Origin: Escherichia coli
GTDB lineage: Bacteria; Pseudomonadota; Gammaproteobacteria; Enterobacterales; Enterobacteriaceae
Reading direction: 5' to 3' (one strand)
Assembly (NCBI RefSeq): GCF_003334385.1
Contig: NZ_QOWN01000027.1
DNA: 61,695 nt
The position numbers and the translations under genes are program-made. The notes beneath the pieces were generated by a model. That model saw only the letters and a list, made by a program, of their open reading frames with translations. It was not told the origin of the DNA and made no database searches. Positions 1 to 23,764 of this stretch are shown here, one piece after another. Position 1 is the first letter of the stretch, and each line of letters opens with the position of its first letter.

Positions 1-2040
1 GCAGCGAAGACATCCGAAACGAACGCGAAAGCGTCGGAAACCAGCGCAGAATCCTCAAAAACGGCTGCCGCATCGTCCGCCAGTTCGGCGGCGTCATCGG
101 CATCATCTGCGTCTGCTTCAAAAGATGAGGCGACCAGACAGGCGTCAGCAGCGAGGGGCAGCGCCACGACGGCATCCACGAAGGCGACAGAGGCTGCTGG
201 CAGTGCGGCAGCGGCAGCACAGAGCAAAAGTACGGCAGAATCCGCAGCAACGCGCGCTGAGACAGCGGCAAAACGTGCAGAGGATATTGCATCCGCCGTG
301 GCGCTTGAGGATGCAAGTACGACGAAAAAGGGGATAGTACAGCTCAGCAGTGCGACCAACAGCACATCTGAAACGCTTGCCGCGACACCGAAGGCAGTTA
401 AAGCAGCGAATGACAATGCGAATGGCAGGGTACCATCTAACCGAAAAGTTAACGGGAAAGCACTGACTGCGGATATAACATTAACACCGAAAGATATTGG
501 CACTTTAAATTCAGTAACGATCTCTTTCTCTGGCGGGGCAGGGTGGTTCAAACTGGCAACGGTTACCATGCCACAAGCGAGTTCCATCGTTTACATCGCA
601 TTGATTGGTGGCGCTGGTTACAACGTCGGCTCCCCACAGCAGGCAGGCATTTCAGAACTGGTTCTACGAGCAGGCAATGGAAACCCCAAAGGGATTACCG
701 GAGCTTTGTGGAAGCGTACAGCCGTCGGATTAACGAATTTCGCCTGGATCAACACATCCGGCGATACATATGATATTTACGTTGAGATTGGCAATTATGC
801 GACGAGTGTAAATATCCATTGGGATTGTACTACAAATGCGTCAGTTTCTATTTATACCTCGCCAACATATTCAGCGAGTAAGCCTTCCAGCGTTACCGGT
901 GGTGTTGTTTATACGATGTATAGCTCACATCAGAAACCTACACCATCAGATATTGGAGCGCTGCCAACGACTGGAGGGACTATTTCAGGTCCGTTGTCTG
1001 TTACTGATGGGATCACCGGGGCACTGAAGGGGAACGCCGATACCGCGACGAAACTTGCGGCAGCCCCAAAAATTAACGGTGTTAAGTTTGATGGCTCGGC
1101 GGATATTAACCTCACGCCGGAAAATATTGGTGCATTTGCCCGACGTTCGACGGGGGCTTATGCGGATTCGGATGGAGCCGTTCCCTGGAATGCCGAATCA
1201 GGCGCTTACAATGTCACCCGCTCTGGCAACAGCTATATTCTGGTTAACTTCTATACCGGAGTCGGAAGTTGCCGGACCTTGCAGATGAAGGCACATTACA
1301 GAAATGGAGGTCTGTTCTACCGTTCCTCAAGAGATGGCTATGGTTTTGAGGAAGACTGGGCAGAAGTTTATACCTCGAAAAATCTTCCACCAGAAAGCTA
1401 CCCAGTCGGCGCACCAATCCCGTGGCCATCAGATACCGTTCCGTCTGGTTATGCCCTGATGCAGGGGCAGACTTTTGACAAATCTGCTTACCCGAAACTT
1501 GCAGCCGCTTATCCGTCAGGTGTGATCCCTGATATGCGTGGCTGGACGATTAAGGGCAAACCTGCCAGTGGTCGGGCCGTATTGTCTCAGGAACAGGACG
1601 GCATTAAATCGCACACCCACAGCGCCAGCGTATCCAGTACGGATTTGGGGACGAAAACCACATCGTCGTTTGATTACGGCACTAAATCCACGAATAACAC
1701 TGGTGCGCATACCCATAGTGTTAGCGGTACGGCTGCTTCAGCCGGTGCACATACCCATTCGATGACATTTGTTTCAGGTGGTTCCAGTGGTGCTCCGGGA
1801 AGTGGATCACCTGATTATTCTAAATACAGTGTTAACACTTCTTCTGCAGGCGCTCATACGCACTCTGTATCGGGTACTGCTGCAAGCGCAGGTGCACACG
1901 CACATACTGTCGGTATTGGTGCTCATACGCACTCCGTTGCGATTGGTTCACATGGACATACCATCACCGTTAACGCTGCTGGTAACGCGGAAAACACCGT
2001 CAAAAACATCGCATTTAACTATATTGTGAGGCTTGCGTAA
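1..2040 (+). CDS. stfQ: Prophage side tail fibre protein, 5'-partial (reading frame open from base 1 of the window)
   Basis: Frame 1 is open from position 1 and is continuous with the 580-aa ORF 298..2040. Ala/Ser-rich N-terminal region, tail-fibre-like motifs ([25 protein letters not shown]), His-rich C-terminal repeats. Stop overlaps the tfa start (TAATG). Symbol inferred from adjacency to tfa/pin/ydfK/ydfJ. Confidence 0.75.
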
Positions 2041-19893: not shown

Positions 19894-20035
19894 AACAGAT
19901 TATCGGGTGAGTTGCGAAAAAGTGATGAAATGATCTTAAAACGGTTAATGATGTGAATACAATGCATTTGTGATCTGGATCGCGTTTTCCGTTTCTCTGA
20001 CGCTGATTCTTTCACGCGTCAGAGAGTCGGTAACA

Positions 20036-20326
20036 TCACGGTTTAATGACGTTCAGGGAGGTCTGGCGTTTTGGCGGTTGCGGGTATAGCGTGTCGTTAC
20101 CCCGAAAAGAAGTCCTCTGAATATATGATAAGTTGTCAAGGTTATTAAATATCTTTTTTGTGGCTGAGTTGATGTTTAAAGACGTGCGCCACTCTTCATT
20201 ACATATTATTGTACTAAGTGCATCAATAAAATCCTTTAAAACTTCTTTTACCTGCGGTGCAATATTACGTACGGGAAAATCATCAGGAAGAGATATGTAA
20301 TTGCTGATGCTTACTGGCGTAACCAT
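20036..20326 (-). CDS. Hypothetical 96-aa ORF, unassigned (possibly a remnant)
   Basis: ORF from the track only; AT-rich, no recognisable domain. Sits where I expect yneK in the K-12 reference. Confidence 0.2.
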   Translation of the reverse strand: MVTPVSISNYISLPDDFPVRNIAPQVKEVLKDFIDALSTIICNEEWRTSLNINSATKKIFNNLDNLSYIQRTSFRGNDTLYPQPPKRQTSLNVIKP

Positions 20327-20403
20327 ATTTGCCCCATATAGTCATAAGTCATCGGAACATCACTATATAGAGCATATTAACCGCAAGAACTATCAAAAAT
20401 AGC

Positions 20404-21285
20404 TCATTGATATCCCTGTCTTGCCGAGTCAGGCACATCCAGCAGTTGAATAAATGCCTCGAGCGGACGTGTTTTCGCACCACGACGCCAGACCAGCCAG
20501 GTTGTTAACCAACGCCATTGCTCAGCTAACGGCCACGCTTCAACCTGGTGATGCCCCGGCATACTTTCCAGCATAGAGCGCGGAATAAGCGCAATGCCTG
20601 CTCCTGCGATCACACAGGCCAACATTCCGTGATAAGACTCCATCTCATGGATAGTTCCCGGAGCGGCACCGTCAGCATGAAACCAGCTCTCGAAGTGGCG
20701 ACGATACGAACAATTGGCGCGGAAGGCATAAATGTTACTGCCATTAACCTGACTGGCACGGGTTACTGGCGCATATCCTTGTGGCGTGACGATCATCAGT
20801 TCCTCGCGGTATACCGGTATCCCGTCGATGGCAGTATGGTTAATGGGTCCATCAATAAACGCCGCATTCAGTTTTCCCTCCAGTACACCATCCAGCATAG
20901 TGCCGGAAGGGCCGGTGGAAAGTGAAAACTGAATTTTGGGATAACGACGGTTGAATTCCGCCAGCGTGGCTGGAATGCGCACTGCAGCGGTGCTTTCCAG
21001 CGAACCAAGAGAAAATAAACCTTGCGGCTCATCGCCAGCGACAACGCTCCGCGCTTCATCCACTAACGCGAGAATTTGTTGGCTATAGCGTAAAAAGTTA
21101 TGCCCGGCAGGAGAGAGACGTAAACGCTGATTCTCGCGAATAAACAGATCAACCCCCAGTTCTGTTTCCAGCTGGCGCAGACGGGTAGTGAGATTCGACG
21201 GCACGCGATGCACTTTTGCTGCAGCCTGGGTTATGCTGCCAGCTTCGGCAACCGCGTTGAACATCTCCAGTTGGGTCAGATCCAT
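20404..21285 (-). CDS. yneJ: LysR-family transcriptional regulator (293 aa)
   Basis: N-terminal HTH ([35 protein letters not shown]) and LysR substrate-binding domain; divergent from sad. Confidence 0.8.
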
Positions 21286-21385
21286 AGCATTCTCGATTCG
21301 TGAATAAGTGGCTTAATATTATTCATTTTAAAGCAAGAGTAAATCTGCGTATCTTCATACCATGACTCATAAAGGAGATACCCCG

Positions 21386-22774
21386 ATGACCATTACTCCG
21401 GCAACTCATGCAATTTCGATAAATCCTGCCACGGGTGAACAACTTTCTGTGCTGCCGTGGGCTGGCGCTGACGATATCGAAAACGCACTTCAGCTGGCGG
21501 CAGCAGGCTTTCGCGACTGGCGCGAGACAAATATAGATTATCGTGCTGAAAAACTGCGTGATATCGGTAAGGCTCTGCGCGCTCGTAGCAAAGAAATGGC
21601 GCAAATGATCACCCGCGAAATGGGCAAACCAATCAACCAGGCGCGCGCTGAAGTGGCGAAATCGGCGAATTTGTGTGACTGGTATGCAGAACATGGTCCG
21701 GCAATGCTGAAGGCGGAACCTACGCTGGTGGAAAATCAGCAGGCGGTTATTGAGTATCGACCGTTGGGGACGATTCTGGCGATTATGCCGTGGAATTTTC
21801 CGTTATGGCAGGTGATGCGTGGCGCTGTTCCCATCATTCTTGCAGGTAACGGCTACTTACTTAAACATGCGCCGAATGTGATGGGCTGTGCACAGCTCAT
21901 TGCCCAGGTGTTTAAAGATGCGGGTATCCCACAAGGCGTATATGGCTGGCTGAATGCCGACAACGACGGTGTCAGTCAGATGATTAAAGACTCGCGCATT
22001 GCTGCTGTCACGGTGACCGGAAGTGTTCGTGCGGGAGCGGCTATTGGCGCACAGGCTGGAGCGGCACTGAAAAAATGCGTACTGGAACTGGGCGGTTCGG
22101 ATCCGTTTATTGTGCTTAACGATGCCGATCTGGAACTGGCGGTGAAAGCGGCGGTAGCCGGACGTTATCAGAATACCGGACAGGTATGTGCAGCGGCAAA
22201 ACGCTTTATTATCGAAGAGGGAATTGCTTCGGCATTTACCGAACGTTTTGTGGCAGCTGCGGCAGCCTTGAAAATGGGCGATCCCCGTGACGAAGAGAAC
22301 GCTCTCGGACCAATGGCTCGTTTTGATTTACGTGATGAGCTGCATCATCAGGTGGAGAAAACCCTGGCGCAGGGTGCGCGTTTGTTACTGGGCGGGGAAA
22401 AGATGGCTGGGGCAGGTAACTACTATCCGCCAACGGTTCTGGCGAATGTTACCCCAGAAATGACCGCGTTTCGGGAAGAAATGTTTGGCCCCGTTGCGGC
22501 AATCACCATTGCGAAAGATGCAGAACATGCACTGGAACTGGCTAATGATAGTGAGTTCGGCCTTTCAGCGACCATTTTTACCACTGACGAAACACAGGCC
22601 AGACAGATGGCGGCACGTCTGGAATGCGGTGGGGTGTTTATCAATGGTTATTGTGCCAGCGACGCGCGAGTGGCCTTTGGTGGCGTGAAAAAGAGTGGCT
22701 TTGGTCGTGAGCTTTCCCATTTCGGCTTACACGAATTCTGTAATATCCAGACGGTGTGGAAAGACCGGATCTGA
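21386..22774 (+). CDS. sad: NAD-dependent succinate-semialdehyde dehydrogenase (462 aa)
   Basis: Aldehyde dehydrogenase family (ELGG motif; catalytic Cys in GQVCAAAKR). Start at ATG 21386 preceded by AAAGGAGA. Confidence 0.85.
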
Positions 22775-22837: not shown

Positions 22838-23764
22838 GTGGCAGTCGCCATGGATAATGCAATTTTAGAAAACATCTTGCGGCAAGTGCGGCCGCTCATT
22901 GGTCAGGGTAAAGTCGCGGATTATATTCCGGCGCTGGCTACAGTAGACGGTTCCCGATTGGGGATTGCTATCTGTACCGTTGACGGACAGCTTTTTCAGG
23001 CCGGAGACGCGCAAGAACGTTTTTCCATTCAGTCTATTTCCAAAGTGCTGAGTCTCGTTGTCGCCATGCGTCATTACTCCGAAGAGGAAATCTGGCAACG
23101 CGTCGGCAAAGATCCGTCTGGATCACCGTTCAATTCCTTAGTGCAACTGGAAATGGAGCAGGGTATACCGCGTAATCCGTTCATTAATGCCGGTGCGCTG
23201 GTGGTCTGCGATATGTTGCAAGGGCGATTAAGCGCACCACGGCAACGTATGCTGGAAGTCGTGCGCGGCTTAAGCGGTGTGTCTGATATTTCCTACGATA
23301 CGGTGGTAGCGCGTTCCGAATTTGAACATTCCGCGCGAAATGCGGCTATCGCCTGGCTGATGAAGTCGTTTGGCAATTTCCATCATGACGTGACAACCGT
23401 TCTGCAAAACTACTTTCATTACTGCGCTCTGAAAATGAGCTGTGTAGAGCTGGCCCGGACGTTTGTCTTTCTGGCTAATCAGGGGAAAGCTATTCATATT
23501 GATGAACCAGTGGTGACGCCAATGCAGGCGCGGCAAATTAACGCGCTGATGGCGACCAGTGGTATGTACCAGAACGCGGGGGAGTTTGCCTGGCGGGTGG
23601 GGCTACCGGCGAAATCTGGCGTTGGTGGCGGTATTGTGGCGATTGTTCCGCATGAAATGGCCATCGCTGTCTGGAGTCCGGAACTGGATGATGCAGGTAA
23701 CTCGCTTGCGGGTATTGCCGTCCTTGAACAATTGACGAAACAGTTAGGGCGTTCGGTTTATTAA
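22838..23764 (+). CDS. glsB: Glutaminase 2 (308 aa)
   Basis: Serine-dependent glutaminase family, 308 aa. Confidence 0.85.

Follow-up and report, generated by a model that had tools for sequence, protein, structure and literature searches.

The window analysed here, a stretch of 61,695 nucleotides of Escherichia coli DNA, raises the question of what has become of yneK between sotB (also named ydeA) and yneJ (also named ptrR), and of what the small open reading frame (ORF) present at that position is. The sotB start codon ends at position 19893 and the ptrR stop codon begins at 20404, leaving an interval of 510 bp (19894-20403), exactly as had been given in the original prediction. That prediction also stated that K-12 has yneK, a gene of about 370 codons, between the two genes, and proposed that the window carries a strain-specific indel and that a 96-codon AT-rich ORF at 20036-20326 might be a remnant or a small novel gene. 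The ORF, on the minus strand, was recovered at these positions as the only sizeable ORF of the interval, and the AT-richness was also borne out: the GC content of the interval is 39%, lower than in the window (47.5%) and in sotB and ptrR (51-53%). The genes on either side were located in the list of ORFs and named from the annotation of matching loci:

16964-17398, minus strand: marA
17367-17801, minus strand: marR
18013-18678, plus strand: marC
18703-19893, minus strand: sotB/ydeA, L-arabinose exporter of the MFS type, intact, 396 amino acids
20404-21285, minus strand: yneJ/ptrR, LysR-type regulator of putrescine utilisation, intact, 293 amino acids (identified from matching-locus annotation)
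21362-22774, plus strand: sad
22838-23764, plus strand: glsB

As the reference for deletion coordinates, we used the K-12-like chromosome locus of strain g74 (L001). In g74, ydeA and ptrR are separated by 1342 bp containing yneK, which is 1116 bp long and encodes 371 amino acids; this agrees with the position and size that had been given for K-12. Moreover, a 1510-bp query centred on the interval had matches in 5420 of 5426 complete E. coli genomes, typically as two pieces spread over 2342 bp, i.e. the window sequence plus 832 bp, and in typical matching genomes the annotation between ydeA and ptrR reads "yneK: putative protein YneK". An arrangement with the same 510-bp spacing and yneK located elsewhere was found neither in the K-12-like locus nor in the typical complete genomes.

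Alignment with the K-12-like sotB-yneJ interval, the check that had been suggested, gave one 832-bp gap inside yneK, with 99.7-100% identity on either side. Window positions 19394-20093 correspond to L001 1501-2199 and positions 20084-20903 to L001 3023-3842, the latter with 100% identity. Between the window and the K-12-like alleles, sotB differs by one synonymous base and no amino acid, while ptrR has no nucleotide difference. The lost 832 bp were not found elsewhere in the window. The interval is composed of the following parts:

19894-20042, no strand: native yneK-ydeA intergenic region, i.e. the sotB upstream region, 149 bp, outside the deletion; identical to L001 2001-2149
20043-20083, minus strand: 3' remnant of yneK, its final 41 nt with the native TAA stop codon (20043-20045), now out of frame; aligns to L001 2150-2190
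20084-20089, no strand: deletion junction with the sole remaining copy of GTATAG; the undeleted allele has copies at L001 2191-2196 and 3023-3028
20084-20326, minus strand: 5' remnant of yneK, codons 1-81 starting from the native ATG (20324-20326); 100% identical to L001 3023-3265
20327-20403, no strand: ptrR-yneK spacer, 77 bp, unchanged and 100% identical to the K-12-like sequence; presumed promoter and ribosome-binding-site (RBS) region of yneK

In total, we conclude that the 510-bp interval is very probably the yneK locus after a spontaneous internal deletion of 832 bp, and that the allele is null or severely truncated.

The anatomy of the junction points to how the segment was lost. The exact match on the left reaches position 20089 and the exact match on the right begins at 20084, giving a 6-bp overlap, GTATAG; beyond this motif, three of the next six bases also agree between the two deletion end sites. 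The left and right alignments account for every base at the junction, with no filler, insertion sequence (IS) end or scar. Moreover, no IS sequence is present in 19894-20403, and IS1 in yneK occurs in other strains only. Thus, the lost segment had a GTATAG at either end, of which one was kept, and the junction has no inserted, filler or mobile-element DNA, the pattern of a deletion between short direct repeats. Such repeats can give rise to deletions by slipped mispairing or illegitimate recombination, a classic RecA-independent route, and spontaneous deletions in lacI, reportedly described by Albertini et al. in 1982, are said to have arisen between such repeats by slipped mispairing. The window resembles these lacI deletions in having the repeat at both ends, one retained copy and no foreign DNA; it differs in that its repeat is short, at 6 bp with three matches in the next six positions, and in that the mechanism is read from the anatomy. 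We infer that the two GTATAG direct repeats would have undergone slipped mispairing or illegitimate recombination, with loss of the 832 bp. Six bases of microhomology is short for a repeat-mediated deletion, which counts against this mechanism; by a rough estimate, only about one in a thousand randomly placed breakpoint pairs would share six or more bases.

Two other routes were considered and rejected. An adjacent deletion mediated by an IS was ruled out because there is neither an IS element nor an IS end at the junction; and for a deletion driven by secondary structure, the inverted repeat near the junction (17 nt, 76% complementary) was no better than chance.

The junction also bears on an engineered origin, e.g. 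a laboratory yneK knock-out. The deletion affects a single non-essential gene and its allele is unique, as would be expected of a construct; however, the junction consists of native sequence only, without FRT or other scar, cassette or primer-derived sequence. Both breakpoints fall within the ORF, at a natural 6-bp repeat; 81 codons remain on the 5' side, and the 41 nt that remain on the 3' side are out of frame. Such internal, out-of-frame end points are unlike designed knock-outs of the Keio type. Moreover, the backbone is not K-12 and resembles human and porcine commensal isolates, e.g. SCU-104 and UMNK88. An engineered deletion is thus extremely unlikely.

Because 832 is not a multiple of three, the reading frame shifts after codon 81, and this accounts for the ORF of the interval, as established from the ORF list and a comparison of translations:

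20036-20326, minus strand: 96-codon ORF, YneK residues 1-81 followed by a 15-residue frameshift tail, PQPPKRQTSLNVIKP, ending at a new TGA stop codon (20036-20038)

The ATG of the ORF is the native yneK start codon, residues 1-81 are identical to K-12-like YneK, and the new TGA lies 7 nt past the native TAA. Compared with K-12 yneK (b1527, UniProt P76150; NCBIfam NF033404, "putative protein YneK"), the remnant occupies the same locus between ptrR/yneJ and ydeA/sotB, uses the same start codon and has its first 81 codons identical to the K-12-like allele; by contrast, it lacks the 832 bp that comprise codons 82 to approximately 358, and has 96 instead of 371 codons with the remainder out of frame. 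The neighbouring genes are those found in the K-12-like, B2, O157:H16 and E. albertii loci. The 96-residue product matched NF033404, the YneK equivalog model, with 168.4 bits (E = 2.1e-49), above the curated cut-off of 40 bits; the match covers profile positions 1-83 of 371 and not the full length. Hence, the earlier statement that the ORF has no recognisable domain holds for Pfam but not for NCBIfam, in which the YneK model recognises it.

The suggestion that the ORF is a remnant was correct, as it consists of YneK residues 1-81 plus 15 frameshifted residues. The alternative suggestion, a small novel gene, was not supported: such a gene would not derive from a known gene and would be conserved elsewhere, whereas the ORF derives from yneK and its junction is absent from the collections searched. 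The 96-codon ORF is best interpreted as a yneK fragment, i.e. a pseudogene remnant, and not as a new gene. With the native promoter region, RBS and ATG kept, the remnant may still yield a transcript and a peptide of 81+15 residues, for which nothing suggests a function. Retention of these expression signals, including an RBS-like GGGG, would also fit a functional small gene, whether for a new small protein or for an N-terminal YneK module on its own, as would the conservation of the first 81 YneK residues within Escherichia and the finding that two further independent deletions retain approximately the first 83-86 codons. However, the tail is plain frameshift read-through of the old yneK 3' end; with a unique allele, there is no sign of selection to retain the ORF; and a B2-type deletion retains only approximately 28 codons, so that retention of the N terminus is not general. 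Moreover, the AlphaFold2 model of YneK, built on an alignment of six sequences, is of low confidence (mean pLDDT 43.5, pTM 0.33), which precluded a fold search, and no N-terminal domain is delimited in it. Altogether, we consider a functional small gene highly unlikely and retain the interpretation as a yneK remnant.

Full-length YneK itself has no significant match in Pfam (DUF1140 only, E = 0.34) and none in PADLOC or among PDB sequences. It has been described as uncharacterised, without Pfam or KEGG annotation, and essentially limited to E. coli and Shigella (PMC12757027, PMC11540155); in agreement, our protein search for relatives returned Escherichia/Shigella-type sequences only. A 380-residue ortholog with 68% identity is the E. 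albertii form, being nearly identical to the YneK named by NCBI in that species, and its gene lies in the order glsB-sad-ptrR-yneK-ydeA-marC-marRAB, as in E. coli. The dN/dS ratio of the E. coli and E. albertii sequences is 0.16 for yneK, 0.05 for ptrR, 0.03 for ydeA and approximately 0 for marC. These ratios indicate that yneK is a real coding gene under purifying selection, weaker than that on its neighbours.

That E. albertii carries a full-length ortholog in this position implies that the long form of yneK is ancestral. The opposite polarity, in which the short interval is ancestral and yneK was inserted or expanded in K-12-like strains, would draw on the AT-richness of yneK (39.8% GC compared with 51-53% in its neighbours) and on its restriction to the genus (PMC12757027), both of which hint at an acquired gene; but the window contains both ends of yneK, with the 5' part 100% identical and the frame broken at the junction, and E. 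albertii, 78.6% of the complete E. coli genomes and all nearest relatives of the window have a full-length yneK at this position. An ancestral short interval is refuted by the E. albertii outgroup together with the structure of the remnant, and we assign it virtually no probability. Thus, the window carries a derived deletion allele.

A 140-bp query spanning the junction matched none of the 5426 complete E. coli genomes in one piece, and 4262 of them as separated halves only, in line with the strain-specific indel of the original prediction. The 31-mer across the junction, GGCGGTTGCGGGTATAGCGTGTCGTTACCCC, was found neither in JGI metagenome contigs nor in GTDB representative genomes, and the exact 96-residue product was not in the gene-position index. 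The closest genomes (e.g. SCU-104, NCTC9041 and C600-like strains) are approximately 100% identical to the window over 24 kb, in which the 832 bp are the sole structural difference; likewise, in a comparison of the whole window with SCU-104, the gap in yneK is the only difference near this locus. Because the junction is absent from the complete genomes, the JGI contigs and the GTDB representatives, the deletion allele looks private to the source strain.

A junction found in no other public genome or metagenome contig is also what an assembly or sequencing artefact would show, in which case the true genome would have an intact yneK and the 832 bp would have been dropped in assembly. By contrast, what assemblers collapse is long repeats rather than one of 6 bp, and the junction is not spanned by any repeat; related genomes are perfectly collinear with the window on both sides of it; and independent genomes commonly have genuine deletions, frameshifts or IS insertions in yneK. 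An artefact is thus very unlikely, and a genuine deletion remains the preferred explanation.

Elsewhere, the window differs in length from SCU-104 in an autotransporter gene (probably repeat-length variation), by 84 bp near ydeQ and by a 26-nt gap in the alignment of 41509-46514. The ECSE_1600-family autotransporter gene at approximately 38003-43423 is full length, as in NCTC9041 (5421 bp); in SCU-104, otherwise the closest genome, it lacks 651 bp (window 40858-41508) and has an internal stop, and the difference between the two is probably repeat-length variation. A 56-bp ydeS island at 45432-45487 lies between two deletions of 1899 bp and 763 bp relative to the K-12-like FDAARGOS_1337; together, these remove, downstream of hipA, the yneL/ydeT pseudogenes and most of the fimbrial genes ydeS and ydeR. 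This arrangement is found in SCU-104 as well, making it a feature of the lineage and not a private one. The region 44000-61695 matched its best hits in three to four pieces, which might have indicated many private deletions in this strain; this was rejected, since the hipA-ydeQ configuration is common to SCU-104. Finally, the left end of the window (1-1738), a Qin-like prophage tail-fibre region, has no match in NCTC9041, but UMNK88, SCU-104 and porcine ETEC strains match it with 99.8% identity, an instance of mosaic variation of prophage tail fibres.

Between the yneK stop codon and the sotB start codon, we observed a 10-bp inverted repeat at 19994-20025 (TCTCTGACGC, a 12-nt loop, and GCGTCAGAGA). 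Its predicted RNA fold has a free energy of -27.1 kcal/mol (z = -6). In E. albertii, both arms and many columns of the sotB upstream region are invariant, although synonymous sites are saturated (dS approximately 1). The hairpin has no T tail and was not scored as a terminator; it may be a sotB regulatory site or a 3' structure of yneK. A scan of 19800-20500 yielded three promoter-like sites, compared with 1.5 expected, and no terminator-like site, while an Rfam scan of 18600-21500 returned only a chance match to mir-471, far under the gathering score. In K-12, the ptrR-yneK spacer contains in vitro gSELEX peaks for NtrC and RpoH (PMC8743547, PMC5493296). The deletion leaves sotB, ptrR and the conserved region upstream of sotB untouched, so that no effect on either gene is expected. 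From the sequence, only the function of YneK would be expected to be lost, and a truncated peptide may still be expressed at some level.

Loss of yneK is not limited to this strain. At least 80% of the gene is present in 4263 of the 5426 complete E. coli genomes (78.6%), and approximately 21% carry a different yneK deletion of about 1 kb; in a spread sample of partial matches, all nine retain just the first 85 nt. In the B2 strain JJ2434, this deletion removes L001 2169-3180 (1012 bp), has 9 unmatched filler bases at its junction, and leaves what PGAP annotates as a 102-bp pseudogene. Like the deletion in the window, it takes about 1 kb from within yneK and leaves sotB and ptrR intact; by contrast, it has other end points, contains filler, keeps the first 85 nt only, and is inherited (approximately 21% of genomes) rather than unique. 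Full-length matches are not uniformly intact either. Among 31 evenly sampled full-length matches, ten span 1114 or 1115 bp instead of 1116 bp and one carries IS1, i.e. about a third of the sampled copies are frameshifted or IS1-interrupted; the three short-span matches that were inspected are all annotated as frameshifted. The frameshift indels lie at nt 377 (T6 to T5, common to two strains), nt 849 and nt 885. The frameshifted or IS1-interrupted examples, O157:H16 Santai, 39EVA, NRZ99027-1, LAU-OXA and BUCT2930, are independent inactivations like that in the window, but by 1-bp indels or IS1. As a rough estimate by length alone, in which some frameshifts may be sequencing errors, intact yneK is present in only about half of the complete E. 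coli genomes.

Larger deletions have generated the fusions YneK(1-83)::SotB and YneK(1-290)::MarR found in the protein database, and an E. albertii allele has an in-frame 192-bp deletion in yneK. In the E. coli YneK::SotB allele, a deletion of 1805 bp joins YneK 1-83 to the C terminus of SotB. Three independent deletions have promoter-proximal breakpoints within approximately 20 nt of each other, at yneK nt 237-243 in the window, nt 251 in YneK::SotB (L013:1751) and approximately nt 257 in E. albertii (L014:1757); one of the three had been selected for its resemblance to the window. That codons 81-86 mark a deletion-prone site, or a boundary past which truncation is tolerated or favoured, is very doubtful; if true, the retained segment of approximately 81 N-terminal residues could have a function of its own. 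In the contigs concerned, the mar side of the locus is structurally plastic too: in the E. albertii contig L014 (GCA_025825695.1), marB directly follows yneK, and ydeA, marC, marR and marA are missing, while in L013 (Logan ERR14075324) HTH and Gp49-type genes replace marRAB after marC. Moreover, a protein of 290 amino acids from an ENA contig of 2029 bp (P0022) has approximately the first 36 residues of YneK followed by unrelated sequence, which suggests that a different gene is joined to the yneK 5' end in some lineage.

In total, the deletion in the window is one more case of recurrent yneK decay, by an allele that was previously unrecorded. The interval is correctly annotated as a yneK pseudogene and not as an intergenic region with a hypothetical small protein. 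Adding one unrecorded allele to the long list of yneK inactivations is an ordinary finding. One pangenome association study tied yneK to adherence to bovine cells (PMC11540155); the presence or absence of yneK in such studies should not be taken as a causal signal. Altogether, yneK is a clear example of a conditionally dispensable orphan gene, one that is under purifying selection across the genus and yet appears intact, by length, in only about half of the complete E. coli genomes.
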